A stretch of 64,000 nucleotides of DNA from Atribacterota bacterium. Lineage in GTDB: Bacteria; Atribacterota; Phoenicimicrobiia; Phoenicimicrobiales; Stramentimicrobiaceae. A program made the translations under genes and the position numbers. The notes under the pieces are model-generated. The model searched no databases, had not been told where the DNA came from, and saw only the letters and a program-made list of their open reading frames with translations. Positions within the stretch are counted from its first letter, which is position 1, and each line of letters opens with the position of its first letter. Positions 32,975-54,055 of the stretch are shown here, one piece after another. The stretch covers positions 96,001 through 160,000 of the forward strand of contig JAXGNR010000005.1 of NCBI GenBank assembly GCA_040767965.1. Reading direction: 5' to 3'.

Positions 32975-33052
32975 TTCCTCCTTCTGTTAATTAGTCTGAC
33001 TAACTTACTTTCTGTTCTAACTAATTTTTTTAAAATAATGCATCAGATCTTA

Positions 33053-33328
33053 AATAAAAAAACTCTCATCCCTATCCTAATCATTTTAGATTAAAATAGG
33101 GACGAGAGCTCGTGGTACCACCCTAATTCAATAAAGAAAAAATATCTTTATACTTAATTTGGATAACGTATCATAAAATAAAAATATGCCATTGGCAATA
33201 TATGAATACGGTTGAATTTAAATCTATCAACTGAATATGAAAGTGATTTTCAGTAAAACTAAAAACTGCCATTTTGCACCAGGTACAGGCTCTCTTTAGT
33301 TTTTTGTTTTACTTACTCGCTTTTATAA
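33053..33328 (-). ncRNA. T-box riboswitch leader of ilvBNC, Ile (AUC) specifier
   Basis: Minus strand: stem I with AGUA, an AGAGAG bulge, a GGUGCAA distal loop and specifier loop GAAA-AUC-A (33247-33245). T-box AAUUAGGGUGGUACCACG at 33128-33111. Terminator CUCUCGUCCCUAU...AUAGGGAUGAGAG plus U-tract. Confidence 0.92.
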
Positions 33329-33356
33329 ATAAGAAAATACTATTAAATTTCTACCG

Positions 33357-33385
33357 ATTTTACTAAAAAAAAATATAAATGTCAA
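33357..33385 (-). promoter_or_regulatory. Sigma70 promoter of the T-box/ilvBNC transcript
   Basis: Minus strand TTGACA-N17-TAAAAT. Confidence 0.75.
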
Positions 33386-33424
33386 AACAATTTTTATATT
33401 TTTTTATAATTTGTTTAAAAAAGC

Positions 33425-33453
33425 TTGACAGCTGATTTTATTTATGTTAACTT
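33425..33453 (+). promoter_or_regulatory. Sigma70 promoter of the aro operon leader
   Basis: TTGACA-N17-TAACTT with an extended -10 TG. Confidence 0.7.
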
Positions 33454-33484
33454 TTATTTTAATCAAAAAATTAGGAGCAATAAG

Positions 33485-33571
33485 ATGCTAAGGAAACAAA
33501 GCCAAATTCAGTTTTATTTTAGCTATTTATATTTCTATTTTATTGGCGATGTTTGTGCCTTAGTATCATAA
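33485..33571 (+). CDS. Phe/Tyr-rich attenuator leader peptide, 28 aa (MLRKQSQIQFYFSYLYFYFIGDVCALVS)
   Basis: SD AGGAG at 33473-33477; 4 Phe and 4 Tyr within codons 10-19; followed by alternative hairpins and a terminator. Confidence 0.85.
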   Translation: MLRKQSQIQFYFSYLYFYFIGDVCALVS

Positions 33572-33596
33572 GCAAAGCATATACAAAATAGCTAAA

Positions 33597-33641
33597 AAAG
33601 ATACCATAGGCAGAAACATCGAAAATGCCTATGGTATCTTT
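33597..33641 (+). promoter_or_regulatory. Attenuator anti-antiterminator hairpin (16-bp perfect stem)
   Basis: AAAGATACCATAGGCA-N13-TGCCTATGGTATCTTT; the right arm can alternatively pair with the terminator left arm. Confidence 0.8.
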
Positions 33642-33657
33642 ATATGTTAGTACATAT

Positions 33658-33699
33658 AAAGGACTATAGGATTTTTTATACCTATAGTCCTTTTTTTTT
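33658..33699 (+). terminator. Attenuator (conditional intrinsic terminator) upstream of aroH
   Basis: AAAGGACTATAGG-N10-CCTATAGTCC followed by T9. Confidence 0.9.
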
Positions 33700-33771
33700 A
33701 TTCTTTCTTATCTTTCTTATTGAAAGAATATTCAAGTTAAGTTTAATTACGAAATAACAGGAGGAAAATTA

Positions 33772-34149
33772 ATGTCAGTAAGAGGTATCAGGGGTGCAAC
33801 TACAGTAAATGATAATAGTAAAAAATCTATTTTAGAAGGAACTAAGGAATTGTTAATAGAACTGCGAACTGCAAATAAATTCGATACAGAAGATATTGTG
33901 ACCATCTTTTTTAGCTCAACTCCTGATTTAAATGCTGCATTTCCTGCAGCAGCAGCCAGAGAGCTTGGCTGGAATATGGTACCTCTTTTTGGTATGCAGG
34001 AGGCGAACATAAAGGAAGGCTTGAAGAAATGTATCAGAATCCTTATTCAAATAAACAGCAATAAATTACAAGCTGAAATGAAACATTGTTACCTGCATGA
34101 AGCCAAGGGATTGAGAAAAGATTTAATTGATAAAAAAGGGGAGAGATAA
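33772..34149 (+). CDS. aroH: Chorismate mutase, AroH class
   Basis: VRGIRGATTV, DLNAAFPA, CIRIL and H.YL..A..LR.D motifs. Confidence 0.93.
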   Translation: MSVRGIRGATTVNDNSKKSILEGTKELLIELRTANKFDTEDIVTIFFSSTPDLNAAFPAAAARELGWNMVPLFGMQEANIKEGLKKCIRILIQINSNKLQAEMKHCYLHEAKGLRKDLIDKKGER

Positions 34150-34151
34150 AA

Positions 34152-35198
34152 ATGATATTAGTAATGGATAGTCATTCCGGGGAAGAAGAACTTAACAAGA
34201 TCAGCAATAAATTAAAAAGCATGGATTTTGAATTAGAGATAAGCAAGGGAAAAGAAAAGATAATAATTGGAATTATCGGAGATACAAGAAAGCTGCTTGA
34301 TTTTCCTTTTTATTCATATTCAGGAGTAATTGATGTTTTAAAAGTATTAAAACCTTATAAACTTGCCAGTCGGGAGTTTCGGGAAAAATCTACTATTGTT
34401 AAAATTGGGAATACTTTAATAGGAGAGCATGAATTGACTTTTATGGCCGGCCCTTGTTCTGTAGAAAATGAAGAGCAAATGTATGAAGCAGCTGCAGGTT
34501 TAAGCAAAATGGGCGTGAAAATCCTGCGTGGCGGAGCTTTTAAACCAAGAACTTCTCCATATAGTTTCCAGGGATTAGGGAAAAAAGGCTTGGAGATGAT
34601 GAGCGATGCTGCCAAAAAACATAATTTACTGGTAATTACTGAAGTTATGTCAATCGAGCAAATAGATATAATTACTCCTTATGCAGATATCCTGCAGGTA
34701 GGCGCCAGGAATATGCAGAATTTCATGCTTTTAAAGGAATTAGGTAAAATAAAGAAACCCGTTATGCTCAAAAGAGGGATGTCTTCTACAATCGAGGAAC
34801 TTTTATTGTCAGCTGAATACATATTATCAGGAGGCAATAAAAAAGTTATTCTTTGCGAAAGAGGTATTCGTACTTTTGAAACTTACACTCGTAATACCTT
34901 AGATTTAAGTGCAGTACCGGCAATTAAAGAATTAAGCCATTTGCCAATTATTGTTGATACCAGTCATTCTACTGGTCGCAAAGAATTAGTTTGCCCTATG
35001 TCAAAAGCAGCTATTGCCTGTGGCGCTGATGGATTAATGATCGAAGTGCACCCATATCCGAATCTTGCCCTGTGCGATGGAGCACAATCGCTTAGTTTAA
35101 ATGAATTTTCAGATCTATTAGCAGAAACTGAAAAGATAGCTCATGCTATGGGAAAAACATTTCATGCTGCCTGCAGCACTGCTGATACCATAGCTTAG
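34152..35198 (+). CDS. aroF: DAHP synthase type I-beta with N-terminal ACT domain, copy 1
   Basis: AGPCSVE, RGGAFKPRTSPYSFQG, GARNMQNF and LCERGIRTFE motifs. Confidence 0.93.
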   Translation: MILVMDSHSGEEELNKISNKLKSMDFELEISKGKEKIIIGIIGDTRKLLDFPFYSYSGVIDVLKVLKPYKLASREFREKSTIVKIGNTLIGEHELTFMAGPCSVENEEQMYEAAAGLSKMGVKILRGGAFKPRTSPYSFQGLGKKGLEMMSDAAKKHNLLVITEVMSIEQIDIITPYADILQVGARNMQNFMLLKELGKIKKPVMLKRGMSSTIEELLLSAEYILSGGNKKVILCERGIRTFETYTRNTLDLSAVPAIKELSHLPIIVDTSHSTGRKELVCPMSKAAIACGADGLMIEVHPYPNLALCDGAQSLSLNEFSDLLAETEKIAHAMGKTFHAACSTADTIA

Positions 35199-36131
35199 AA
35201 TAAATATTTAATAATTTAATAATAGGACAAATAAAAGGTTCTTTTCAAATTCAGAGAAGACCAGATAAGGATAGAAATTTTTTAAAATTAGATTAGTAAT
35301 AATATTAAAAAGACAGGTAGCCTAAAGGAGAAAAATTATGGTAATAGTTATGGATGGAAAAACTGAAGAGAATAGTATTACAAAGATCAGCGATAAGTTA
35401 AAAAGCATGGGTTTTGAACTACAAACTATTAAAGGAAAAAATAAAATTGTGATTGGAATTATTGGAGATACCAGAAAGTTATTGAATTTTCCTTTTCATT
35501 CTTATGAAGGAGTTGTGGATGTTCTGAAAGTTTCTAAACCGTATAAACTTGCAAGCAGAGAATTTAGAGAATTGTCCACCATTATAAAAATTAACGATGT
35601 GCTTATAGGAGGTCAGGATACTGTTATTATGGCTGGCCCCTGCGCTGTAGAAAACGAAAAACAAATCTATGAAATTGCCGAGAATATCAGCAAAATGGGC
35701 GTGAAAATCCTGCGTGGCGGAGCTTTTAAACCAAGAACTTCTCCATATAGTTTCCAGGGATTAGGGAAAAAAGGCTTGGAGATGATGAGCGATGCTGCCA
35801 AAAAACATAATTTACTGGTAATTACTGAAGTTATGTCAATCGAGCAAATAGATATAATTACTCCTTATGCAGATATCCTGCAGGTAGGCGCCAGGAATAT
35901 GCAGAATTTCATGCTTTTAAAGGAATTAGGTAAAATAAAGAAACCCGTTATGCTCAAAAGAGGGATGTCTTCTACAATCGAGGAACTTTTATTGTCAGCT
36001 GAATACATATTATCAGGAGGCAATAAAAAAGTTATTCTTTGCGAAAGAGGTATTCGTACTTTTGAAACTTACACTCGTAATACCTTAGATTTAAGTGCAG
36101 TACCGGCAATTAAAGAATTAAGCCATTTGCC
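34503..36131 (+). repeat. 443-bp direct repeat (34503-34945 and 35689-36131), plus a 53-bp repeat (34998-35050 and 36184-36236), between the two DAHP synthase genes
   Basis: Read as identical by eye at a constant offset of 1186 bp; flanking sequence is diverged. Confidence 0.88.
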
Positions 36132-36375
36132 TGTCATAGTTGACCCCAGTCATGGAACCGGGAGAAGAGAAATGATTAATTCCATGTCAAAAGCAGCTAT
36201 TGCCTGTGGCGCTGATGGATTAATGATCGAAGTGCATCCGCATCGCGAAATGGCTTTAAGCGATGGTTCTCAATCATTAGACTTTGAAGCATTTAGAAGT
36301 TTGCTGATAGATTTAAAAAGGGTAGCTGATTCAGTAGACCGAACTGTTAATTATAATTATATATCATTTTTATAG
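35338..36375 (+). CDS. aroF: DAHP synthase type I-beta with N-terminal ACT domain, copy 2
   Basis: Same motifs as copy 1, plus DPSHGTG and ALSDG.QSL. Confidence 0.93.
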   Translation: MVIVMDGKTEENSITKISDKLKSMGFELQTIKGKNKIVIGIIGDTRKLLNFPFHSYEGVVDVLKVSKPYKLASREFRELSTIIKINDVLIGGQDTVIMAGPCAVENEKQIYEIAENISKMGVKILRGGAFKPRTSPYSFQGLGKKGLEMMSDAAKKHNLLVITEVMSIEQIDIITPYADILQVGARNMQNFMLLKELGKIKKPVMLKRGMSSTIEELLLSAEYILSGGNKKVILCERGIRTFETYTRNTLDLSAVPAIKELSHLPVIVDPSHGTGRREMINSMSKAAIACGADGLMIEVHPHREMALSDGSQSLDFEAFRSLLIDLKRVADSVDRTVNYNYISFL

Positions 36376-36401
36376 GAAGTTTATAGGAAGGAAATAAACG
36401 T

Positions 36402-37697
36402 TTGGATAATATAGTAAATGGAATAAAAAATAAATTGCTAAAAAAAACTATATATATTCCCGGAGACAAATCAATTACTCATCGTGCAATTATTTTATCT
36501 TCTATTGCATCAGGTGAATCAATAATAAATAATTATTTAAATGCTTTGGATTGTCAGAGTACCATAAAATGCATGCAAAACTTAGGAGTAATAATTGAAG
36601 AAAAAGATCCCATGACATTAAGAATATTTGGCAAGGGGATTAAAGGACTGCAAGCCCCAAGCAATGTTTTGGATGTGGGAAATTCAGGAACAACGATAAG
36701 GCTATTAGCTGGATTACTTTGTGGACAGGAATTTACAAGCACTCTCGATGGTGATGATTCTGTCAGGAAAAGACCGATGGATAGAATCATTAAGCCATTA
36801 TCATTAATGAATGCTGATATAAATAGTTTGACAGAGAAGAAGTTTGCACCTCTGAAGATAATCGGAAAACCATTAAGGCCTATACACTATAGCATGCCAG
36901 TAGCAAGTGCCCAGGTGAAATCGGCAATACTGCTGGCTGGTCTTTATGCTGATGGAGAAACAATAATCAGGGAAAAAGAACAAACAAGAGATCACACTGA
37001 AAGAATGTTAAGTTTTATGCAGGTTGATATTAAAAGAAGGCCAAAAAAGATTATTACTATTACACCCGTAAAAGCACTTAAAAATGTTAATATTGATATT
37101 CCAGGAGATATTTCTTCAGCCGCTTATTTTCTAGCATTAGGGTGTGCCAGAAAAGATTCAGAACTAATCATTAGAAATGTAGGAATCAATAAAACCCGAA
37201 CAGGCTTTCTGGAGGTGCTCAAAAAAATGGGAGCTAACATTACAATTATAAATAAAAAAGTTATTTCCAATGAACCCAGGGCAGACCTCCTTTTAAAAGG
37301 AGGTCTTTTAAAAGGTATAAAGATTGATCAAAAAATAATTGCCAACATTATTGATGAACTGCCATTAGTTGCTGTTCTGGGGGCTCTAGCAAAAGGAAAA
37401 ACTATAGTTGAACAGGCCCAGGAATTAAGAGTAAAAGAAAGTGATCGCATTAAAGCAATTGTGGAAGGATTAGCAAGAATGGGGGCTAAAATCATCGAAA
37501 AAGAAGATGGATTTGAAATTATAGGTCCCGCAAAGCTAAAAGGAAATACGGTTAACAGTTATAAAGATCATCGTATAGCCATGTCTTTGACTATTGCCGC
37601 TTCCTATGCAGAAGGGAAAACAATTATTCAAGATGCACAGTGTATTGATATATCTTATCCCGGATTTGTTAACAGTTATCAGGAAGTAATGAAATAA
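36402..37697 (+). CDS. aroA: EPSP synthase
   Basis: PGDKSITHRA, GNSGTTIRL, ASAQVKS, RDHTE, LRVKESDRI and DHRIAM motifs. Confidence 0.96.
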   Translation: MDNIVNGIKNKLLKKTIYIPGDKSITHRAIILSSIASGESIINNYLNALDCQSTIKCMQNLGVIIEEKDPMTLRIFGKGIKGLQAPSNVLDVGNSGTTIRLLAGLLCGQEFTSTLDGDDSVRKRPMDRIIKPLSLMNADINSLTEKKFAPLKIIGKPLRPIHYSMPVASAQVKSAILLAGLYADGETIIREKEQTRDHTERMLSFMQVDIKRRPKKIITITPVKALKNVNIDIPGDISSAAYFLALGCARKDSELIIRNVGINKTRTGFLEVLKKMGANITIINKKVISNEPRADLLLKGGLLKGIKIDQKIIANIIDELPLVAVLGALAKGKTIVEQAQELRVKESDRIKAIVEGLARMGAKIIEKEDGFEIIGPAKLKGNTVNSYKDHRIAMSLTIAASYAEGKTIIQDAQCIDISYPGFVNSYQEVMK

Positions 37698-37727
37698 ATT
37701 ATTAAAATATTAGGATTTAAAAAAAAG

Positions 37728-38582
37728 ATGAAATCTTTAATTTCTATTTTAGGATTAATAGGAGAGCATATCGAGAACAGCCTTTCTCCTTTTATTCACA
37801 AATCTTTTATCTCTGAGCATAGTCTGAATTATTGTTATTTGCCTTTCCAAATAAAAAAAGAGAATTTGGTAAAAGCAATTATTGGAGCAAAATCATTGGG
37901 GGTTAAAGGACTCAATATTACTTTCCCCTTCAAAGAAAAAACAATTTTGCTGTTAGATGAAATAGACTCAGATGCAGAAAATATCGGAGCAATAAATACT
38001 ATTCTAATTAAAAATAATAAAATATGTGGATATAATACTGATTGGAAAGGGTTTACGATTCCTTTAATTAAAAGAAAAATAAAATTAAAAAATAAAAATG
38101 CCATTGTTTTAGGGGCAGGTGGAGCAGCAAGAGCAGTTGTGTATTCTTTAGCAAAGGAAGAGTGTTCTGCTATCTCTATCTTTAATAGGAATCTGGAACA
38201 CGCTTTAGAAATAAAAAAAGATTTTCAAGGATTGTTTCCGTCATGCAAAATAAATATTTTTTCTTTAGATGATGGTGAATTAAAAAAGATAATAAAAAGT
38301 AGCATTTTGCTTGTTAACACTACTCCTTTGGGAAGCTGGTATTATCTTGAACAGTGTCCTTTGCCTGCAGAGATCGATTTGCCTCCCGAAATGTTTGTTT
38401 ATGATTTAATTTACAATCCGGACAAAACACCATTGGTGAAAATGGCTGAAATAAAAGGCAATAAAACAGTAAATGGCAAAGAAATGCTCGTATATCAGGC
38501 AGCAGAGAGTTTTTCCATTTGGACCGGATTATATCCAGGACAAAATACTATTAACCAAATTTTAGATGGTATAAAAGACTAA
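37728..38582 (+). CDS. aroE: Shikimate dehydrogenase
   Basis: SLSP.IH, GLNITFPFK, GAINT, NTD, GAGGAARA and DLIYNP motifs. Confidence 0.94.
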   Translation: MKSLISILGLIGEHIENSLSPFIHKSFISEHSLNYCYLPFQIKKENLVKAIIGAKSLGVKGLNITFPFKEKTILLLDEIDSDAENIGAINTILIKNNKICGYNTDWKGFTIPLIKRKIKLKNKNAIVLGAGGAARAVVYSLAKEECSAISIFNRNLEHALEIKKDFQGLFPSCKINIFSLDDGELKKIIKSSILLVNTTPLGSWYYLEQCPLPAEIDLPPEMFVYDLIYNPDKTPLVKMAEIKGNKTVNGKEMLVYQAAESFSIWTGLYPGQNTINQILDGIKD

Positions 38583-38608
38583 GAAATAATGTAGTTAAGA
38601 GGTATATT

Positions 38609-39784
38609 ATGGTTTTAAGATTTTTAGATGCAGGAGAATCTCATGGAAGGTGTTTATTAGGAATAATTGAAGGATTTCCTCAGGGCGTTGAATTAAATCA
38701 GGAAAAAATAGATTATCAACTACAAAGGAGACAAGGTGGATTTGGAAGGGGAAGCCGGATGAAAATCGAACAAGATCACCTGGAAATCCTGGCTGGAATT
38801 ATAGAAGGGAAATCTATAGGAAGCCCAATCGGATTATTAATTAAAAACAAAGATTGGGAAAATAATGACCCGAAAAATATGAATGAGTTGACAATTCCCC
38901 GACCCGGACATGCTGATTTAGCAGGGTTAATTAAATATAATCTGGATAACTATCGACCAATTCTAGAGCGAGCGAGTGCCAGAAATACAGCGATGCGTGT
39001 TGCAATCGGAGCTATTGCTCAGCAATTGCTGGAATATTTTTCGATCTATTCATTTAGTCATGTTATCAGCATAGGTAATATTTCTGTTAAAAACGCAATT
39101 TTACAAAAAATAAAAAAAGAAAATTCTGTTGATTCATTGACAGAATTGAAAGATAAGATTAACAAATCAGCTGTTTTTTGTGTAGATGATGAGACATCTC
39201 AAGGAATGGTTCAGAAAATAAAACAGGCAGCTGAAGAGGGCAATTCTTTAGGGGGGCAATTTGAAATAATAGTAAGAAATGTTCCTATTGGGTTGGGTAG
39301 TCATGTTTTCTGGGATAGAAGAATAGATTCGCGCATTGCAGGTGCTCTAATGAGCATTCCCAGTGTGAAAGCTGTAGAAATAGGGGAAGGAATAAAAAGT
39401 TCTAAAAATAAAGGATCTATAGCCCATGATGCGATTTATTTCCAGAAAAACAAACAAAACTCTAATTATTATCGTAAAAAAAATTGGGCTGGAGGGATTG
39501 AAGGTGGAATAACAAATGGGGAGAATATAGTTGTGCGAGTTTACCTGAAGCCAATACCTACACTCTTGCAACCTCTTCCTTCAGTAGATATCAAAACAAA
39601 AAAAGAGATCAGAGCTGATTACCAAAGATCAGATATCTGTGTTGTTCCTGCAGCTAGTGCGGTAGGAGAGGCAGTAGTAAATTGGGAACTGGCCACAGTT
39701 TTTATAGAAAAATTTGGAAATGATTCTTTAAGAGAAATAGAAAATAACTTTAATAATTATCTGAAAAGGATACAGGAGTGTTAA
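38609..39784 (+). CDS. aroC: Chorismate synthase
   Basis: GESHG, PRPGHAD, ERASAR and GGIEGGITNG motifs. Confidence 0.96.
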   Translation: MVLRFLDAGESHGRCLLGIIEGFPQGVELNQEKIDYQLQRRQGGFGRGSRMKIEQDHLEILAGIIEGKSIGSPIGLLIKNKDWENNDPKNMNELTIPRPGHADLAGLIKYNLDNYRPILERASARNTAMRVAIGAIAQQLLEYFSIYSFSHVISIGNISVKNAILQKIKKENSVDSLTELKDKINKSAVFCVDDETSQGMVQKIKQAAEEGNSLGGQFEIIVRNVPIGLGSHVFWDRRIDSRIAGALMSIPSVKAVEIGEGIKSSKNKGSIAHDAIYFQKNKQNSNYYRKKNWAGGIEGGITNGENIVVRVYLKPIPTLLQPLPSVDIKTKKEIRADYQRSDICVVPAASAVGEAVVNWELATVFIEKFGNDSLREIENNFNNYLKRIQEC

Positions 39785-40299
39785 GTAAAAATATTATTAT
39801 TACCGGATTTATGGGGACAGGCAAAAGTACTGTCGGTAAATCTTTGGCGTTTATCTTGAAAAAACAGTTTTTGGATATGGATTCTCTGATTGAAGAAAAA
39901 GAAGGGAAAAGTATCACTGATATTTTTCAACTAAAAGGAGAAAATTATTTTAGAAATTTGGAAAAAAATATCTTAAAAGAAATTATAATGGGAGAAAATA
40001 TGGTTATTGCAACTGGAGGAGGGGCTTTACTGGAAGAAGATAATTTTATATTAGCCAACAAAGAAGGATTGGTTGTATTGCTAAAGGCAACCCCGACTGT
40101 AATATTTTCAAGATTAAAAAAGGATAAGAACAGGCCTTTGCTGTCAGGTGATGATAAATTAAGAAAAATCATCGATTTGATGGAAAAAAGAAAAGAGAAA
40201 TATGACCGTTTTGCTAATTCCATAGATACTTCAGATTTTACAGTAGAACAGATTGTTGGTGAAATAATAAAAATCTATCGGAGAAAATATAATGAATAA
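39778..40299 (+). CDS. aroK: Shikimate kinase
   Basis: GFMGTGKS, GE.YFR, ATGGG and RPLL motifs. Confidence 0.95.
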   Translation: MLSKNIIITGFMGTGKSTVGKSLAFILKKQFLDMDSLIEEKEGKSITDIFQLKGENYFRNLEKNILKEIIMGENMVIATGGGALLEEDNFILANKEGLVVLLKATPTVIFSRLKKDKNRPLLSGDDKLRKIIDLMEKRKEKYDRFANSIDTSDFTVEQIVGEIIKIYRRKYNE

Positions 40300-41383
40300 A
40301 ATAGAATTAAAATTTCAAAAACAATATGATTGTAAAATAATAATAAAAAAGGACATTCTAACAAAAATTGACCATTATCTAATTCCACTGCTGACAGGAA
40401 ACCATATTGTAATAATTACCAATAATTTGGTAAAGAATCTTTATGGAGATAATATCAGTAAAATAATTTCTAAGAAAAATATCACTGTTGACTTTATAGA
40501 AGTGCCTGATAGTGAAAGCAGCAAATCATTAACAGTTGCAGGTATGATTTATGATGAATTATTACAATTAAAAGCAGACAGGTCTACTGTTTTAATTACC
40601 CTGGGAGGAGGCGTAATTGGCGATTTAGGTGGATTTATTGCATCTACTTTTATGAGAGGAATTCCTTTTATACAAATACCTACTACATTGCTGGCTCAGA
40701 TTGACAGTAGCATAGGAGGAAAAGTTGCAATAGATCATTTTAAGGCAAAAAATATAATAGGGAGTTTTAATCACCCTATTGCCAATTTTATTGATCCGAA
40801 TGTTTTGATAAGTTTACCAGTCTCTCATCTGAAAAATGGAATTACTGAAGCAATTAAAATTGCCATAATATTTTCTCCAGATTTTTTCACCTGGATTGCT
40901 GAAAATCTAGATAAAATATTGCAAAAAGATGAAGAGTCGTTAGGTTTTTTGATAAAAGAAGCTGCTCAATTAAAAATTAAGACTGTACTGGAAGATCCCT
41001 GGGAAAAAAATCAACGACATTTTCTTAATCTGGGACATAGTATCGGACATGCAATCGAATCTGTTAAGGGATATGAGACTATTTCTCACGGAGAGGCAGT
41101 TGCCATGGGGATTGTGCTGGAAACAAGAATTGCTTACCAGAAAAGAATATGTAGCCTGGAAACCAAAGAAAAAATTGAGAATATTTTTCAAAAAATAGAT
41201 ATCCTTCCAGAAGTATGTTTGGATAAAGAAACTCTGGGGAAATATTGGAATTCATTGCTTTTAGACAAGAAAAATAAAAACGGAATAATTCGTTTTGTAT
41301 TGCCTGAAAAAATAGGTAAAGTGCAAATGTTTCAGCCGATATATAAAGAAGACCTGGAATTTGCATTTAACTCGCTTAGATAA
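40292..41383 (+). CDS. aroB: 3-dehydroquinate synthase
   Basis: GGGVIGDLGGF, PTTLLAQIDSSIGGK, LNLGHSIGHAIE and HGEAVA motifs. Confidence 0.96.
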   Translation: MNKIELKFQKQYDCKIIIKKDILTKIDHYLIPLLTGNHIVIITNNLVKNLYGDNISKIISKKNITVDFIEVPDSESSKSLTVAGMIYDELLQLKADRSTVLITLGGGVIGDLGGFIASTFMRGIPFIQIPTTLLAQIDSSIGGKVAIDHFKAKNIIGSFNHPIANFIDPNVLISLPVSHLKNGITEAIKIAIIFSPDFFTWIAENLDKILQKDEESLGFLIKEAAQLKIKTVLEDPWEKNQRHFLNLGHSIGHAIESVKGYETISHGEAVAMGIVLETRIAYQKRICSLETKEKIENIFQKIDILPEVCLDKETLGKYWNSLLLDKKNKNGIIRFVLPEKIGKVQMFQPIYKEDLEFAFNSLR

Positions 41384-41405
41384 AAAAGAAAAAAGAGGGA
41401 AAACA

Positions 41406-41849
41406 ATGAAAATTAATATTATTCATGGTCCGAATTTAAACCAGTTAGGCAAGAGAAAGAAAGAGCATTATGGAGTATTATCTCTGGAAGAAATTAACTG
41501 TCTGCTAGAGAAAAAAGCTGCCCAGCTTAATATTCAATTGAAAATATTGCAATCAAACTATGAAGGGAAAATAATAGATTTTATTCAACACTCTTCCCAA
41601 GAGGCTGATGGTTTGATAATTAATCCAGGTGCTTTCACTCATTATAGTTATGCGATTAGCGATGCTTTGGAAGACTGTAAGATTCCTGCTATTGAAGTGC
41701 ATCTGTCCAACATATATTCCCGTGAAGATTTTAGAGCAAAATCGGTAACAGCAAGATCCTGCACAGGTCAAATTGCTGGTTTGGGATATCATGGGTATTT
41801 GCTGGCAATAGAAGGAATGTATTTTTTAATTAATGGGAGGAAAGCTTGA
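41406..41849 (+). CDS. aroQ: Type II 3-dehydroquinate dehydratase
   Basis: HGPNLN.LG.R...YG, INPGAFTHYS and EVHLSNI..RE.FR motifs. Confidence 0.95.
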   Translation: MKINIIHGPNLNQLGKRKKEHYGVLSLEEINCLLEKKAAQLNIQLKILQSNYEGKIIDFIQHSSQEADGLIINPGAFTHYSYAISDALEDCKIPAIEVHLSNIYSREDFRAKSVTARSCTGQIAGLGYHGYLLAIEGMYFLINGRKA

Positions 41850-42742
41850 AAAAGGAGTATTTAATGAATGAAGATAGTGATTTTAGTGAATTTAAAAGGA
41901 TTACAATTATAGGTTGTGGTTTGATCGGAGGTTCAGTCGGTCTTACTTTAAAGAAAAAAAAATACGCAGTTGAAATTGTCGGAATTGATCATGAACAAAT
42001 AATTGAGAAAGCGTCCTCGTTAGGAGCGATCGACTGGGGAACTACAGAAATTAGAAAAGGTGTTGAAGGAGCAGATCTGGTAATCCTTGCTACACCGGTA
42101 AAAGAAATAATAAAACTCATGACAGAGATTAAACCTTTTGTATCAGCTAATTGTCTTGTTACTGATACAGGAAGCTCTAAAGAAAGGATTCTAATAGAAG
42201 CGCAAAAAATATTTTGTGATAAATGTGATTTTATAGGGGGCCATCCAATGGCTGGACTGGAAAATGGGGGAATTGAATTTGCTCAAGCCGGTTTATTTTC
42301 TAACAAACCTTTCATTTCTGTTGAAAAAAAAGGAAATAAGCTGCAAGCCAGACAAAAAATGACTAATTTCATAAAAATGATAAATGCTATAGAAATAAAG
42401 TTAAGAGCTATTGAACATGATCAAATTATTTCCCTGGTCAGTCATGTTCCACAATTAGTTGCTATTATTTTTACTAACTTGTTTGGCCAGCTAATACAGA
42501 AAGATTTTTCTGAAGACTGCTATAAAATAGGGGGTAAAGCTTTTAACGAAATGACCAGAGTAGCAAGCAGTCCTTTTTCCATGTGGGGAGATATCTATGA
42601 AACTAACAACATATGGACAGTTGATTCTATTGAAAAAATAGAAGAAATGCTAAAAAAAATAAAAGAAAAAATAATTAAAAATCCAGAAGAGTTGAAAGAG
42701 GACTTTTTAGCGGCAAAATATTTTAAAGAGAAAATGTCTTAA
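41846..42742 (+). CDS. tyrA: Prephenate dehydrogenase
   Basis: GCGLIGGS, TDTGSSK, GGHPMAG, EHD, SHVPQL and MTRVASS motifs. Confidence 0.92.
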   Translation: MKKEYLMNEDSDFSEFKRITIIGCGLIGGSVGLTLKKKKYAVEIVGIDHEQIIEKASSLGAIDWGTTEIRKGVEGADLVILATPVKEIIKLMTEIKPFVSANCLVTDTGSSKERILIEAQKIFCDKCDFIGGHPMAGLENGGIEFAQAGLFSNKPFISVEKKGNKLQARQKMTNFIKMINAIEIKLRAIEHDQIISLVSHVPQLVAIIFTNLFGQLIQKDFSEDCYKIGGKAFNEMTRVASSPFSMWGDIYETNNIWTVDSIEKIEEMLKKIKEKIIKNPEELKEDFLAAKYFKEKMS

Positions 42743-42824
42743 AATTCTATTAATTTTAAAATATTAAAATAAATAATTACATTAATTAAAAAAATTAAAA
42801 GAATAAAAGAAGAGGTAGTAAATT

Positions 42825-43706
42825 ATGGATGAAAATAGTGATTATGAATATAAGATGAATAAAAAAATAGCTTTACAAGGAGAAATCGGGTCTTTTAGTG
42901 AAATGGCTGCTTTGAATTATTTTGGTTCTGCAATTGAAATATTACCCTGCAACAGTTTTGAACAGGTTAGCCAAAAAATGAAAGAAGGCATGGCAGAATA
43001 TGCGATATTACCAATTGAAAACTCTCAAACTGGTAGCATTAATAGTGTTCATGATATTCTTTTAAATGAAGATTTATTTGCAAATGGAGAGATTGCTCTA
43101 AAAATAGAACATTGTCTTATTACTCATTATGACGTTGTTCAGGAGCAAATTGAGAAAATCTTTTCTCATCCTCAGGCTTTAGCCCAATGTGAAAAATATC
43201 TTTCGCAAAAATTTCCGAACAGGCATATAATCCCAGTGTATGATACTGCAGGCAGCATCAAGCAAATCAAGGAATCGCATGATGTCAAAGCAGCCGGGAT
43301 TGCCAGCAGCAGGGCAGCAGCTTATTACGAAATGCAAATTATGGAAAAGGGAATAGAAGATAACCCGTTTAACTATACTAGATTTTTGGTTTTATCCAGA
43401 GATAGAAAGGAAAACAGAGAAAATAATAAAACATCTATTATATTTGCTGTAGTCAGTGTTCCGGGAGCAATTTACAGATGTTTGCAAGAATTTGCAATCA
43501 GAAATATTAATTTATCCAGATTGGAGTCCAGACCCAGCAGGAGAAGACCATGGGAGTATGTTTTTTATATGGACTTCGAAAAAGGAATACAGGACGAGGT
43601 ATCACAAGAGGCTTTAAATGCTCTTAAAAGTCATACAACATTTGTGAAAATTATCGGCTCATATCCTTCAACAGCAAATCCTTTAAATATGATCAGCTCA
43701 GTATAA
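42825..43706 (+). CDS. pheA: Prephenate dehydratase (monofunctional, with ACT domain)
   Basis: PIENS, SHPQALAQC, NYTRF and INLSRLESRP motifs. Confidence 0.94.
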   Translation: MDENSDYEYKMNKKIALQGEIGSFSEMAALNYFGSAIEILPCNSFEQVSQKMKEGMAEYAILPIENSQTGSINSVHDILLNEDLFANGEIALKIEHCLITHYDVVQEQIEKIFSHPQALAQCEKYLSQKFPNRHIIPVYDTAGSIKQIKESHDVKAAGIASSRAAAYYEMQIMEKGIEDNPFNYTRFLVLSRDRKENRENNKTSIIFAVVSVPGAIYRCLQEFAIRNINLSRLESRPSRRRPWEYVFYMDFEKGIQDEVSQEALNALKSHTTFVKIIGSYPSTANPLNMISSV

Positions 43707-49604: not shown

Positions 49605-49907
49605 ATGGATAATTTCCCTAAATGGAGAAATGAAATGACCGATCAGCTTTTTAAAGCAATAATGTTGTTGGAAAATATCGGTGAATGTTACAGGTTTTTT
49701 GAAGATGTAGCTACCATAAATGAAATAAAAGAACTTAGTCAACGATTGGAAGTAGCCAGAATGCTCGATGAAGGTTTTATTTATGAAGATATTGTACAAA
49801 AAACCGGAGCTAGTTCAGCCACTATTAGCAGAGTGAAGAAATGCTTAAATTATGGCGCTGATGGCTATCAGCTAATTTTGAAAAAATTTAAAGAACAAAA
49901 AAAATAA
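49605..49907 (+). CDS. TrpR-related repressor (YerC/YecD, HisR-type)
   Basis: ECYRFFEDVAT..E...LSQRLEVA and TGASSATISRVKKCLNYG motifs. Confidence 0.92.
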   Translation: MDNFPKWRNEMTDQLFKAIMLLENIGECYRFFEDVATINEIKELSQRLEVARMLDEGFIYEDIVQKTGASSATISRVKKCLNYGADGYQLILKKFKEQKK

Positions 49908-49922
49908 AAAATGGAGGAATGG

Positions 49923-50696
49923 ATGTATAAAAATAAAAAAATTGTAGCAGTACTTTTTAGTTTGTTATTTTTCTTTGCAAGCCTGGGCTTTTCTGCAGTA
50001 TGTGCTGATAAGGCTATTTATGTTAATGGGATAGATGCCGATTATCCTCCACATGCTTATGTAGATGAACAGGGAAACCCGGCTGGTTTCGATGTTGAAG
50101 CTTTGGATTGGATTGCTGAAGAAATGGGCTTTGAAGTTATTCATCAGCCAACGGCCTGGGATGGCATTGTGTCAAGTCTGTTAGCCAAGAAAATTGATAT
50201 GGTCTTCTCTGGAATGAGTATCACAGAAGAAAGAAAAGAAAGAGTTAATTTTTCGATTCCATACTGGTCAATCGATCAGGCTATTGCTGTGAATATGGAT
50301 TCTGACTTAAATGCCATAGAACTGTTTATGGGCGATTATTTGGTAGGCACTCAACGTGGTTGTACAGCTGCTATGTGGATTGAAGATAATCTGATAAGTG
50401 ACGGATTGTTTTCGAAAGATCAACTAAAGTTATATGAAGGTTTTTCTTTGGCTGTACAAGATCTTTTAAACCAAAGAGTAGATGCTGCAATGATGGATGA
50501 TGTTATGGTAGAGGATGCTATCCGTAAAGGGATGCCAATTAAAATAGTCGGGACTATTAAAACTGGTGAAGAATATGGTATTGCTGTTAGAAAAGATGAC
50601 AAGGAATTATTAGACTTAATCAATGAAGGTCTTAACCGGATAATGCATTCAACTAAATGGGATGAATTAAAAGCAAAATATTTTCAAGCCCAATAA
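49923..50696 (+). CDS. Polar amino acid ABC transporter substrate-binding protein
   Basis: Signal peptide; YPP, GFDV, WDGIV, SGMSITEER and YGIAVRK motifs. Confidence 0.9.
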   Translation: MYKNKKIVAVLFSLLFFFASLGFSAVCADKAIYVNGIDADYPPHAYVDEQGNPAGFDVEALDWIAEEMGFEVIHQPTAWDGIVSSLLAKKIDMVFSGMSITEERKERVNFSIPYWSIDQAIAVNMDSDLNAIELFMGDYLVGTQRGCTAAMWIEDNLISDGLFSKDQLKLYEGFSLAVQDLLNQRVDAAMMDDVMVEDAIRKGMPIKIVGTIKTGEEYGIAVRKDDKELLDLINEGLNRIMHSTKWDELKAKYFQAQ

Positions 50697-50778
50697 AATA
50701 AAGTTAATAATTCAATAAAAATAGTGTGAATTAAGTAATTTAAATAAAAATAATAATCATGTATAACTAAATGAAAAA

Positions 50779-50818
50779 AAGATGGGGATATAGACCTATA
50801 AGTTTATATCCCCATCTT
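50779..50818 (+). terminator. Stem-loop between the SBP and permease genes
   Basis: AAGATGGGGATATAGAC-CTATAA-GTTTATATCCCCATCTT. Confidence 0.65.
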
Positions 50819-50919
50819 AATGAAAATATGATCATTGTAAAAATTAGCGCAGTATGAATAAATCATTATTAAATTATGGGATTGTTTGATTTATATTAAT
50901 ATTATGAAAAAGGTTAAAG

Positions 50920-51585
50920 ATGGAGAATTTTATAGTAATATATCAGGCTTTACCGTTTTTACTACAAGGCATTTTAACCACTTTGGGGCTGGTTTTAAGT
51001 TCCCTTTTTTTAGGTCTTGTAATAGGCCTGCCTTTATCGGTTGGTGAGGTATACGGGCCATGGTATCTAAAAAAATTAATTGGAATTTATATTTGGCTTT
51101 TCAGAGGATTGCCAATTTTGGTTCTTTTATTCTTATTTTATTATGGTTTGTTTAATCTGATAAACTTAAATTTATCTGCTTTTATTTCAGCTGTGCTGGT
51201 TCTGGGTTTACGAAGTTCGGCTTATCAGGCACAAATATTCAGAGGTAGCATTCAATCTTTAAGCCAGGGACAATTGCTGGCAGCACAATCTCTTGGTATG
51301 AGTAAAAATATGGCAATTTGGAGTATTATTCTGCCACAATCATTGAGGATGTCAATCCCTGGCTGGTCAAATGAATATCCTGCTATGCTGACCGAATCTG
51401 CTGTTACCTATTCAATTGGAGTGATGGAAGTATTAACAAGAGGGAACTTTATTGCATCAAGAACTTATAGGCCTATGCCAATCTACCTAACATGTGCCTT
51501 AATATTTTTATTTTTATCATACTCAGGCATGAAATTACTTCACATTTTAGAGGAAAAAGTAAGAATACCTGGATTTGAAGAGTGA
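50920..51585 (+). CDS. Polar amino acid ABC permease
   Basis: FRGLPILV motif and EAA-like loop GQLLAAQSLGM. Confidence 0.9.
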   Translation: MENFIVIYQALPFLLQGILTTLGLVLSSLFLGLVIGLPLSVGEVYGPWYLKKLIGIYIWLFRGLPILVLLFLFYYGLFNLINLNLSAFISAVLVLGLRSSAYQAQIFRGSIQSLSQGQLLAAQSLGMSKNMAIWSIILPQSLRMSIPGWSNEYPAMLTESAVTYSIGVMEVLTRGNFIASRTYRPMPIYLTCALIFLFLSYSGMKLLHILEEKVRIPGFEE

Positions 51586-52378
51586 AAGGTTTACCGGAAT
51601 GACAGTAAAAAAAGAAATAGTATTAAGAGTAAGAGATATACACAAAGCATTTAACGGGAAAGAAGTATTAAGAGGTGTTTCTTTTGATGTATTTAAAGGG
51701 GAAACGAAAGTAGTAATTGGCCCTTCCGGGACTGGTAAGAGCACTCTTTTGAGATGTATTAACCAGTTGACAATTCCTGATCAGGGAACTGTTTGGCTAA
51801 GAGATCAAGAAGTAACACATCATAATTTGAAAGGAATAAATCAATTCCGTCAAAAGATTGGCATGGTCTTTCAAGATTTTAATTTATTTGACCACCTCAA
51901 TGCTGTTGGAAATGTTGAAATTGCTTTAATCAAAGTCAAAAAAATGAATAGGGCAAAAGCAAGAGAAAAGGCTGTATTAGAATTAAAAAAAGTTGGATTA
52001 GGGAAGCAAGCTTTACTTTATCCTGCTCAATTATCTGGTGGTCAACAACAGCGAGTATCCATAGCCAGGGCATTAGCAATGGATCCCGAAGTTATGCTTT
52101 TTGATGAGCCAACATCAGCTCTCGATCCCGAACTTATTGGAGAAGTATTAGGTGTAATGCAAAAATTAGCAAAAGAAGGAATGACTATGATTGTAGTCAC
52201 CCATGAAATGGGATTTGCGCGTTCAGTAGCTGATGACATAATATTTTTAGAAAAAGGAAAACTACTGGAAAGCGGCTCTCCTGATAAATTATTTTATCAA
52301 CCAAAGTACGAAAGAACAAGAAAGTTTTTATTTAAATTGACAGAGTTGTATGGAGATATTAACAAGGAAAAAATATGA
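51575..52378 (+). CDS. Polar amino acid ABC ATPase
   Basis: GPSGTGKST, LSGGQQQRV, FDEPTSALDPE and VTHEMGFAR motifs. Confidence 0.93.
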   Translation: MKSERFTGMTVKKEIVLRVRDIHKAFNGKEVLRGVSFDVFKGETKVVIGPSGTGKSTLLRCINQLTIPDQGTVWLRDQEVTHHNLKGINQFRQKIGMVFQDFNLFDHLNAVGNVEIALIKVKKMNRAKAREKAVLELKKVGLGKQALLYPAQLSGGQQQRVSIARALAMDPEVMLFDEPTSALDPELIGEVLGVMQKLAKEGMTMIVVTHEMGFARSVADDIIFLEKGKLLESGSPDKLFYQPKYERTRKFLFKLTELYGDINKEKI

Positions 52379-53055
52379 TTGGATTAGAATTTTTTTCAAA
52401 TATCTTATTTCCTTCCGTTTTAGAAGGAATGTCAATGACTTTAAAGTTAATCGCCTGGTCAATTCCAATCGGGTTGATTGTAGGGATTTTAGTTGCTATT
52501 GGTAGAGTCTACGGAAATGCGATAATATCATTTTTTAGTAAAGCTTATATTATCTTTTTCAGAGGAACCCCTTTGCTAATTCAACTGTTTATGCTTTACT
52601 ATGCTTTTCCTTCAATAGGGATCTACTTATCACCATTTGTTGCTTCCATTATTGGTTTTGTGCTGTGTAGCAGTTCGTATCATGCTGAATACATACGGGG
52701 TTCTATTCAATCAGTAAAAAGCGGTCAACTTTTAGCAGCGCAAGCATTAGGTATGAGTAAAATAAGTGCTGTCATCAACATAATACTGCCCCAGGCTTTA
52801 CGAAGGGCTATTCCCGGATGTTCAAATGAGGTTATATATTTAATAAAATATTCATCTTTGGCTTTTATGGTTACCTGCATTGAATTAACAGGCGCCGGTA
52901 AAATTGTTGCTTCAAGGTATTTTACATATACTGAAGTCTTTTTGGTAATTGGTGCAATTTATTTGATAATTGTCTCCATAGCTACCAGGATACTTAATAT
53001 TCTAGAAGAAAAATTAGCATATCCTGGTTGGGAAAAAGGAGGAAAAGACAGATAA
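52375..53055 (+). CDS. Polar amino acid ABC permease
   Basis: FRGTPLLIQL and GQLLAAQALGM motifs. Confidence 0.9.
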   Translation: MIGLEFFSNILFPSVLEGMSMTLKLIAWSIPIGLIVGILVAIGRVYGNAIISFFSKAYIIFFRGTPLLIQLFMLYYAFPSIGIYLSPFVASIIGFVLCSSSYHAEYIRGSIQSVKSGQLLAAQALGMSKISAVINIILPQALRRAIPGCSNEVIYLIKYSSLAFMVTCIELTGAGKIVASRYFTYTEVFLVIGAIYLIIVSIATRILNILEEKLAYPGWEKGGKDR

Positions 53056-53056
53056 C

Positions 53057-54055
53057 ATGATCAAACCTCTCTGTTTAGATCATTCCAGCTTGAAACATCC
53101 TCTACCTCCAAAATTAATAGAGGAACTCCAGCCGGAATTACAAAAGATAAATGAATATCCAAGCGGAGGATCATATGATGATCTTTGTAAAAAAACAGCA
53201 GAATATTTTGCTGTATCAACAGAAAATATACTGCCTACAAATGGGTCAGATGAAGCTATTGAGGCTACTACCAGAGCATTTGGAAATAAGCTGATATTAA
53301 TACCTGCACCAACTTTTTCGCAATATGAAGTAAGTGCTTCTAGAAACAATATGCACTTTAAATTAAGTCCTTGTTTATCAGATGATAACTATCAGTTAAA
53401 ATTTATTAATGACAATCTGGAGGATGCAAGTCTGGTCTGGATTTGCAATCCCAATAATCCTACAGGAAATTCTATCCCAAGGGAAAAAATAATTGAAACA
53501 ATTGAAAAGACTAGTGGAATAGTCACTGTTGATGAATGTAATTATGAATACTTGAAAGAAACTGTAATAGATTTGGTAAAAAAATACCCTAATCTGGTAG
53601 TAATTCGCAGTTTTTCAAAAAACTTTGGTCTTGCTGGCTTGAGAATAGGTTTTGTCATTTCATCCAGTAAAAACATTAAGAATATCAAGAGATATTGCCA
53701 ATACTTTCGAGTGAATAAAATTGCTGAAAAGGCAGCCATTAAGGTTTTGCATTATTTGGATGAATATCAGGAGATATGGAATGATATTGCTGTTACACGG
53801 GATACATTTGTAGATAATTTGCAACATCTTAAGATAAAAGCTTTTCCATCTAAAACCAATTTTGTACTGATAGATTTGCATACCAAAAAGGAAACCAGAC
53901 GAATATGGGAATATCTAAGAAGCAAAAAAGTGTATGTTTTAGCATCCTGGGAAGATGAGTTTTCTGGATTAGGGGATCATTATATTCGTTTTGCAATTGG
54001 TAGCTCACAAGAAATGAATTATGTTTTTACATTATTAAAAAATTTTAAAAAATAA
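53057..54055 (+). CDS. PLP-dependent aminotransferase, HisC (class I-beta) family
   Basis: NGSDE, PTFSQY, CNPNNPTG and RSFSKNFGLAGLRIG motifs. Confidence 0.85.
   Translation: MIKPLCLDHSSLKHPLPPKLIEELQPELQKINEYPSGGSYDDLCKKTAEYFAVSTENILPTNGSDEAIEATTRAFGNKLILIPAPTFSQYEVSASRNNMHFKLSPCLSDDNYQLKFINDNLEDASLVWICNPNNPTGNSIPREKIIETIEKTSGIVTVDECNYEYLKETVIDLVKKYPNLVVIRSFSKNFGLAGLRIGFVISSSKNIKNIKRYCQYFRVNKIAEKAAIKVLHYLDEYQEIWNDIAVTRDTFVDNLQHLKIKAFPSKTNFVLIDLHTKKETRRIWEYLRSKKVYVLASWEDEFSGLGDHYIRFAIGSSQEMNYVFTLLKNFKK

Follow-up and report, generated by a model that had tools for sequence, protein, structure and literature searches.

We describe a leader on the plus strand, at positions 33461-33699 of a 64,000-nucleotide stretch from the genome of an uncultured Atribacterota bacterium (the window), which is very probably a his-type ribosome-mediated transcription attenuator of an 11-gene aro operon, with six RNA segments that form five mutually exclusive helices. 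The element is made up of a Shine-Dalgarno (SD) sequence, a 28-codon open reading frame (ORF), the five helices and a terminator with a run of nine T residues (T9), and it lies behind a conserved promoter-like site. Our reading draws on this anatomy and its conservation, on covariation in all of the helices, and on the thermodynamic fit of the alternative folds to the positions of a ribosome on the leader. Judged from the sequence and its relatives, control of the aro operon by the leader, its switchable hairpins and the terminator is the most likely arrangement.

The operon in question (33772-43706, plus strand) comprises 11 genes with NCBIfam matches, each above the cut-off for at least one model, in the order aroH, two paralogous DAHP synthase genes, aroA, aroE, aroC, aroK, aroB, aroQ, tyrA and pheA. 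The first structural gene, aroH, starts at 33772 and encodes an AroH-type chorismate mutase, and the presence of tyrA and pheA equips the operon for Tyr and Phe synthesis; it contains no trp genes. An earlier, sequence-only reading of this DNA had placed 12 genes under the leader, a count that we revise to 11, since glnS follows only after a gap of 241 nt from the end of pheA. No excess of terminator-like sites was found inside the operon (10 versus 7.2 ± 2.7 expected from shuffles). On its upstream side an intergenic region (32975-33771) separates the plus-strand aromatic operon from a minus-strand ilvB-ilvN-ilvC cluster, and a gene of the Trp_repressor family lies 6 kb downstream of the operon, given which protein-level control of the aro promoter is also conceivable.

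The promoter-like site (33425-33453, plus strand) consists of a -35 box TTGACA (33425-33430), a 17-nt spacer containing a TG dinucleotide (33445-33446), and a -10 box TAACTT (33448-33453), and the transcript would start at about 33461. Because the -10 box agrees with the consensus at only 3 of 6 positions, the promoter is absent from the list returned by a simple promoter scan. Nevertheless, in 29 of 30 homologues TTGACA, the 17-nt spacer and a TGnTAAnnT-like -10 box recur with unchanged spacing to the leader, the locus L023 being the exception. The SD sequence AGGAG (33473-33477) is positioned 7 nt upstream of the leader ORF (33485-33571; MLRKQSQIQFYFSYLYFYFIGDVCALVS), which has 28 codons, an ATG start (33485-33487) and a TAA stop (33569-33571); the sequence-only reading gave the same length, and the start is here corrected from 33486 to 33485. 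That reading had also named this SD sequence and the run F-Y-F-S-Y-L-Y-F-Y-F (33512-33541) in an ORF without Trp, both of which the sequence bears out, so that 8 of 10 successive codons specify Phe or Tyr (four of each).

Six segments can be delimited in the leader RNA. Segment 0 (33484-33505), which spans the start codon and codons 2-7, is the 5' arm of helix a, and segment 1 (33543-33567), corresponding to the final eight codons of the ORF, serves both as the 3' arm of helix a and as the 5' arm of helix b. Segment 2 (33597-33621) contributes the 3' arm of helix b (33600-33621) and the 5' arm of helix c (33597-33612), segment 3 (33626-33647) the 3' arm of helix c (33626-33641) and the 5' arm of the antiterminator d (33628-33647), and segment 4 (33652-33670) the 3' arm of d and the 5' arm of the terminator e (33658-33670). 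Segment 5 (33681-33699) ends the series with the 3' arm of e (33681-33693) and T9 (33691-33699). Computed pairs and energies show that all five helices proposed earlier are present with the same boundaries: helix a joins 33484-33505 to 33543-33567 in 20 bp (-20.2 kcal/mol), helix b joins 33547-33567 to 33600-33621 in 18 bp (-21.3 kcal/mol), helix c is a perfect stem of 16 bp (-23.5 kcal/mol), helix d has 19 bp and one bulged A (-20.4 kcal/mol), and helix e has 13 bp (-17.1 kcal/mol). The stem of e is GC-containing and closes a loop of 10 nt, and it was missed by a simple terminator scan with a loop limit of 8. Overall, the leader RNA (33460-33705) has a minimum free energy (MFE) of -71.7 kcal/mol versus -39.8 ± 4.1 in 200 dinucleotide shuffles (z = -7.7), none of which equals it, and the MFE structure of the whole leader contains helices a, c and e. 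A further pairing of 12 bp between 33517-33528 and 33586-33597, likewise put forward earlier, is an exact complement but is not conserved, with 4 of 30 sequences reaching -8 kcal/mol or better, and we have therefore left it out of the mechanism.

Several features are expected of an attenuator. The 5' leader of a biosynthetic operon should contain a short ORF that can be translated, with an SD sequence and start codon, and in this ORF codons for amino acids that are the operon's own products should be clustered. An intrinsic terminator should separate the ORF from the first structural gene, and an antiterminator that excludes this terminator should form in dependence on ribosome position. Each of these is found here, with the terminator at 33658-33699 and the coupling seen in thermodynamic folding. 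In the mechanism that we propose, transcription would begin near 33461 and a ribosome would load onto the 28-codon leader ORF. With an ample supply of charged tRNA-Phe and tRNA-Tyr, the ribosome would reach the stop codon (33569-33571) and cover segment 1, allowing segments 2 and 3 to pair as helix c and leaving segment 4 free to join segment 5 in the terminator e, so that transcription would stop at T9 before aroH. If the leader were not translated at all, segment 0 would pair with segment 1 in helix a, and helices c and e and termination would again follow. A ribosome stalled at any of the eight Phe and Tyr codons of the run, by contrast, would break helix a and expose segment 1, which would then capture the emerging segment 2 as helix b; segment 3 would in turn pair with segment 4, and the resulting antiterminator d would block the terminator and permit transcription of the 11 genes from aroH to pheA. 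The switch would act on transcription in vivo, and helix a may double as a pause or single-round device.

The folding calculations are consistent with this scheme. Pairing was barred under a 28-nt ribosome footprint and the transcript was folded at successive polymerase positions, so that the results are thermodynamic only. With the A site of a stalled ribosome at any of codons 10-18, helix b forms (16-18 of its 18 pairs) once segment 2 has emerged. When the A site is on any of codons 10-15, or on codon 17 or 18, helices b and d together constitute the MFE structure once segment 4 has emerged, and the 5' arm of the terminator is occupied, which is the outcome that the sequence-only reading had predicted for a stall at Phe or Tyr codons, naming constrained folding as a check. 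At codon 16 the state with helices a and c is ahead by 0.3 kcal/mol, in a calculation that allows helix a to close round the ribosome, which is sterically doubtful. The termination branch of the earlier proposal held as well: a ribosome that has reached the stop codon covers segment 1, helix c forms and then helix e, and d shrinks to a tip of 6-7 bp, and with no ribosome helices a, c and e form. The terminating and antiterminating states are nearly isoenergetic. When segment 3 is out and segment 4 is not yet (up to 33645), the MFE structure is helix c despite the stalled ribosome, from which it follows that antitermination needs helix b to persist kinetically.

To place the leader among its relatives we used the AroH protein, whose closest matches share 72-74% identity and, where named, are labelled Caldatribacteriota or Atribacterota. 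A locus scan with the single AroH protein gave no confirmed relative, and a second scan with a 35-sequence AroH alignment gave 80 loci. Of these, 29 (L001-L028 and L034) are Atribacterota or bear the same element, and the other 51 are non-Atribacterota; the relatives with names fall into two families, both in the class Phoenicimicrobiia. Together with the window, the 29 related loci make up a 30-sequence alignment (A2), which splits deeply into two clades of 15 sequences each. The element, with a homologous ORF of 26-33 codons and its Phe and Tyr codons, precedes aroH in each of the 29 related Atribacterota loci, a conservation that had been named in advance as a check on the proposal. Gene order is likewise retained, the leader being followed by aroH, DAHP synthase, aroA, aroE, aroC and aroK in 27 of the 29, while the remaining two loci end at aroH. 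An nhmmer search with A2 detected the element nowhere else in the window and in none of the 51 non-Atribacterota loci: its matches were just the 30 input sequences, with minus-strand matches reflecting self-complementarity. The search thus separated members from non-members, and the spread of the element is known from these loci alone.

The leader ORF is conserved in two distinct manners. Start codons are ATG in 15 sequences (window included) and GTG in the other 15. The ATG clade resembles the leader of the window (e.g. MLRKQSQEIFNFNYYYFYFIGDVYALVS), and in the GTG clade the start comes eight bases past AAGGAG (e.g. (GTG)AINREFTKSINSFNFYYYYYTTDVYALTS); an SD-like purine-rich sequence precedes the start in the homologues generally. 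Differences in ORF length are whole codons, the indels being multiples of three. In the 12 codons that precede segment 1, each of the 30 sequences holds 6-9 Phe and Tyr codons in frame (mean 7.5), compared with 1.0 and 3.5 in the other two frames, one of which has a stop in 30 of 30. When the nucleotides of these 36 bases are shuffled the figure is 3.7, with at least 6 and no stop in 5.8% of trials. Trp occurs in only one of the 30 peptides, as the last codon of L012. Codons alternate synonymously across the 30 leaders (TAT/TAC 130/28, TTT/TTC 96/19), and there are Phe-Tyr exchanges too. Segment 1, which covers the last eight codons, is invariant at the nucleotide level, third codon positions included, and where the clades do differ in it the amino acid is altered (Val to Thr) and the RNA partner covaries. 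From the invariance and covariation of segment 1, taken with the frame-specificity of the Phe and Tyr codons, we conclude that the ORF is under constraint as a series of codons at its front and as RNA at its back. The stop codon falls at, or slightly past, the end of segment 1 in all leaders, and the N-terminal halves of the peptides are unrelated between the two clades.

Covariation, the other comparative check named in advance, supports both of the competing folds. In A2 the terminating fold (c and e) has 96.0% of cells paired, versus 37-57% in slid controls, with 59 cells changed on both sides; 11 pairs are changed on both sides versus 4.7 ± 1.2 in shuffles, and 0 of 500 shuffles reach 11. 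The antiterminating fold (b and d) has 96.4% of cells paired (slid controls, 31-53%). Six of its pairs are changed on both sides, a number that 31 of 500 shuffles reach, and 44 cells show compensatory change versus 17.6 in shuffles, a number reached by 0 of 500. Helix e taken singly is 98.9% paired and shows two-sided change in 4 pairs; the hairpin with its T-run is present in 30 of 30. When RNAalifold was run without an input structure, it returned helix c, the tip of d and helix e. The alignment columns 123-168-200-248-273, which span helices b, c, d and e, read G-C-G-C-G in one clade and A-U-A-U-A in the other. Such a covarying chain is expected only if each segment uses both of its partners, making this an unusually clean comparative case in which one covarying position is traceable through four mutually exclusive helices. 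Subsets of the sequences add further compensations, for example GAGGUC/GACCUC replacing GAUACC/GGUAUC in helix c. These two-sided changes mostly follow the one split of 15 versus 15 sequences, and therefore represent few independent covariation events. Helix a was scored per sequence and off A2, since the location of its 5' arm differs between the clades: in one it consists of coding sequence, and in the other (the GTG-start clade) it overlaps the SD sequence. An equivalent duplex is kept in 30 of 30 (mean -17.9 kcal/mol, z < -2 in 26 of 30), including L023, where the start lies further upstream and the duplex reaches -16.4 kcal/mol once more upstream sequence is added. In the GTG-start clade helix a covaries as well, with CTAAGG/CCTTAG versus TTAAGG/CCTTAA.

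On the plus strand a scan with Rfam 15 matched no family to the leader. The Phe_leader family (RF01859) gave 16.9 bits (E = 7.3), far from its gathering score of 55, and the T-box (RF00230) gave no plus-strand match at E up to 10. Across the whole window the one match at the gathering cut-off is a tRNA. A T-box-like match of 71.3 bits (cut-off 93) lies on the minus strand at 33095-33329, where it serves ilvB. Matches to PyrR (33 bits versus a cut-off of 54) and to sRNA families on the minus strand at 33594-33733 were rejected as reverse readings of palindromic hairpins and T/A runs; no gene follows on that strand. We also scanned 14 Bacillota-labelled or Bacillota-like aroH loci, picked by eye from the 51, and Rfam matched nothing directly upstream of aroH in these; its only matches were two tRNAs and, some 2.4 kb downstream, two T-boxes. 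Elsewhere among the aroH loci, 10 of 15 Chloroflexota-labelled ones have, directly upstream of aroH, a small ORF that contains a Phe/Tyr run and precedes a GC-rich terminator; this ORF is unrelated to the Atribacterota leader. These Chloroflexota loci suggest that the Phe/Tyr leader design recurs across phyla and, together with the Atribacterota leader, that Phe/Tyr-sensing leaders before aroH are commoner than the Phe-only textbook cases imply.

Several other explanations of the leader deserve to be weighed. The one that departs least from ours accepts a leader-peptide attenuator and makes Phe its sole signal, with the other codons as tolerated filler. The two kinds of codon are one base apart and freely exchanged among homologues, and in Corynebacterium glutamicum transcription through the aroR leader rises under Phe limitation and is indifferent to Tyr, according to the available portion of a review (PMC11802643). 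We nonetheless find a Phe-only signal unlikely, because all 30 leaders keep both amino acids (Phe 2-6, Tyr 3-7), Tyr exceeds Phe in one clade (e.g. 6-7 Tyr versus 3 Phe), and the operon holds tyrA as well as pheA. It is on the codon content, and on the joint presence of tyrA and pheA in the operon, that we base the view that both amino acids are signals and that ribosomes would stall at both Phe and Tyr codons.

Other explanations would dispense with the reading of codons altogether. The terminator/antiterminator switch might be thrown by some factor acting in trans, whether protein (RNA-binding), tRNA or small ligand, the ORF being incidental; helices b to e would suffice for a working switch, T-boxes serve amino acid genes in other phyla, and a T-box-like leader lies 150 nt off on the opposite strand of the same genome. 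This is improbable in view of the plus-strand Rfam result, in which even the best family, Phe_leader, falls well below its cut-off, and in view of an ORF whose SD sequence, start, frame and frame-specific run of Phe and Tyr codons all 30 sequences retain, with indels in multiples of three and a stop codon always at or just past the end of segment 1. Nor do we give much credence to the idea that the ORF encodes a functional hydrophobic peptide, or a TnaC-like arrest peptide that senses the free amino acid and has no readout of tRNA charging, which we judge to be very improbable indeed. What speaks for it is a C-terminal sequence, D-V-Y/C-A-L-V/T-S, that is near-constant across both clades. However, this stretch coincides with segment 1, where even third codon positions are invariant, and where it varies its residues are replaced (Val to Thr, Ile-Gly to Thr-Thr) together with matching changes in the RNA partner; the N-terminal halves, as noted, are unrelated between clades, and what lies downstream is an intrinsic terminator and no Rho site.

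With a ribosome-mediated attenuator as the preferred reading, the arrangement suggests that the supply of Phe and Tyr jointly sets expression of the entire common aromatic pathway. It provides a concrete candidate regulatory RNA for a candidate phylum with almost no experimental genetics, and it would mean that Atribacterota use classical leader-peptide attenuation besides T-box-like control. Although tentative, and in our estimate holding a little less than an even chance, a broader reading would combine three propositions: that the leader is an OR gate responding to a shortage of either tRNA, that such aroH leaders are recurrent across phyla, and that helix a ensures a single round of translation. 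Were this so, a shortage of charged tRNA-Phe or of charged tRNA-Tyr alone would switch on the 11-gene shikimate/Phe/Tyr pathway. Mixed Phe/Tyr leaders before aroH-led operons would then form a widespread, unrecognised class with several independent origins, represented by the two Atribacterota families, by the unrelated Chloroflexota form and, as a minimal third case, by C. glutamicum aroR. Under the same broader reading, helix a would hide the start codon or SD sequence once segment 1 has been made, limiting each transcript to one round of translation.

Among known systems the closest in architecture is the enterobacterial his attenuator (hisL), a multi-hairpin leader with the successive pairings A:B, B:C, C:D, D:E and E:F. 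As the his system is generally described, the Atribacterota leader shares with it six segments and five consecutive, mutually exclusive helices that end in a terminator, together with the proposed logic whereby full translation or none leads to termination and a stall at the regulatory codons shifts the pairing and removes the terminator. It differs in that its regulatory codons are Phe and Tyr and not His, in that its codon run sits in the loop between segments 0 and 1 and not within the first segment, and in that the two leaders have no sequence relation and come from different phyla. The gammaproteobacterial pheL-pheA and pheM-pheST leaders are likewise similar in having a short ORF with a Phe run, an antiterminator and a terminator before a gene of the Phe pathway, whereas they are Phe-only and control one or two genes, and the leader described here falls outside RF01859.

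Closer in codon content is the aroR leader of C. glutamicum, the one Phe/Tyr precedent that has been put to the test, which was reportedly studied by Neshat et al. in 2014, a work known to us through a review. In the portion of that review available, aroR is a Phe-Tyr-Phe leader upstream of the aroF operon that responds to Phe limitation and not to Tyr availability (PMC11802643). As described there, it resembles our leader in placing a mixed Phe/Tyr leader peptide before a DAHP synthase operon and in using ribosome-stalling attenuation, but its motif has three residues, compared with the 8-11 Phe/Tyr codons of the Atribacterota leader, and its operon is small and does not span the whole pathway. 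It also belongs to the Actinomycetota, so that the likeness, compared by description, is one of design only. A second precedent is uORFC-13-1 of Acholeplasma, a motif ahead of aroF that is predicted to be a uORF containing Phe codons (PMC8632094). Its published description, in the part available, sets a Phe uORF beside an intrinsic terminator and before a DAHP synthase gene on comparative evidence alone; it specifies at least one Phe and mentions no Tyr run in that part, and it concerns a different lineage (PMC8632094). The motif is not among the Rfam matches of the window. T-boxes (RF00230), by which Bacillota usually control amino acid genes at the RNA level, also read tRNA charging through a conditional terminator, but they bind uncharged tRNA directly and do not need translation.

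As to earlier surveys, the text available of an older one reports that the Phe and Tyr genes of Actinobacteria yielded no RNA elements (PMC1262725), and another, in its available part, limits the leader peptides known at that time to Proteobacteria and Actinobacteria and adds its own new Firmicutes cases (PMC2965389). Our search of open-access papers and preprints for Atribacter leader peptides, Tyr-codon leaders and aroH attenuators returned nothing on the element. The sequence-only reading had taken the design to be novel; the element indeed matches no Rfam family, but aroR and the Acholeplasma uORF, as far as their available descriptions go, are precedents for the design (PMC11802643, PMC8632094). 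The mechanism itself is therefore not new, and mixed Phe/Tyr leaders have a precedent. What the leader adds is a new, sequence-unrelated example of an attenuator, apparently the first to be described from this phylum, and for annotation purposes it defines a new family that is a candidate for inclusion in RNA family libraries.

In the clade of Atribacterota leaders that start with ATG, to which the window belongs, the start codon falls within the 5′ arm of helix a (33484-33505 in the window), which pairs with the last 8 codons of the leader ORF (segment 1, 33543-33567), whereas in the GTG-start clade this arm overlies the Shine-Dalgarno sequence and the extreme 5′ end of the transcript. In the relatives L009-L017, L019, L020, L022, L025 and L034, the 5′ ends are the counterparts of 33484-33505 in the window. 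Once segment 1 has been transcribed, the predicted helix a would hide the leader's own initiation site, and such concealment may restrict the leader to a single round of translation.

Between the leader terminator and aroH, five relatives (L010, L012, L013, L020 and L022) carry an additional 100-200 nt of GC-rich, hairpin-forming sequence. This insertion, absent from the window and from most other loci, is possibly a small repeat element. Further into the operon, the window encodes two DAHP synthase paralogues in tandem (34152-36375, plus strand), separated by an AT-rich gap of 139 nt. In the tblastn listing a second DAHP synthase match lies right behind the first in L001, L018 and L021 and farther downstream, past aroK, in L007, with the remaining relatives giving one match each.

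On the minus strand, a T-box-like leader (33095-33329; 71.3 bits, E = 2.9e-15, under the gathering score of 93) and its accompanying terminator-like hairpin and T-run (33108-33063) precede ilvB-ilvN-ilvC (32974-29716), and because of this arrangement the two divergent operons appear to be served by two different RNA sensors within one 800-nt spacer. Judging from the cmscan alignment, the specifier of the T-box-like leader looks like AUC (Ile). Elsewhere in the window, a plus-strand gene series (49605-54055) begins with a Trp_repressor-family protein of 100 aa. Next come the components of an amino acid ABC transporter (a solute-binding protein, two permeases and an ATPase), and after these a class I/II aminotransferase.

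Small ORFs with a Phe/Tyr run were also found upstream of aroH in 10 of the 15 loci labelled Chloroflexota/Anaerolineae (L035, L036, L042, L047, L053, L059, L067, L069, L077 and L080), in each case 100-260 nt 5′ of the aroH match, with runs such as FAFYFYGY, YYYYFGF and SFFFYYY. In all 10 the ORF is followed by a GC-rich hairpin and T-run immediately 5′ of aroH, and the regions 5′ of aroH in these flagged loci have a G+C content of 41-58%. No sequence similarity was found between the Chloroflexota leaders and the Atribacterota element, and the former look like a separate, independent family of Phe/Tyr leader attenuators.
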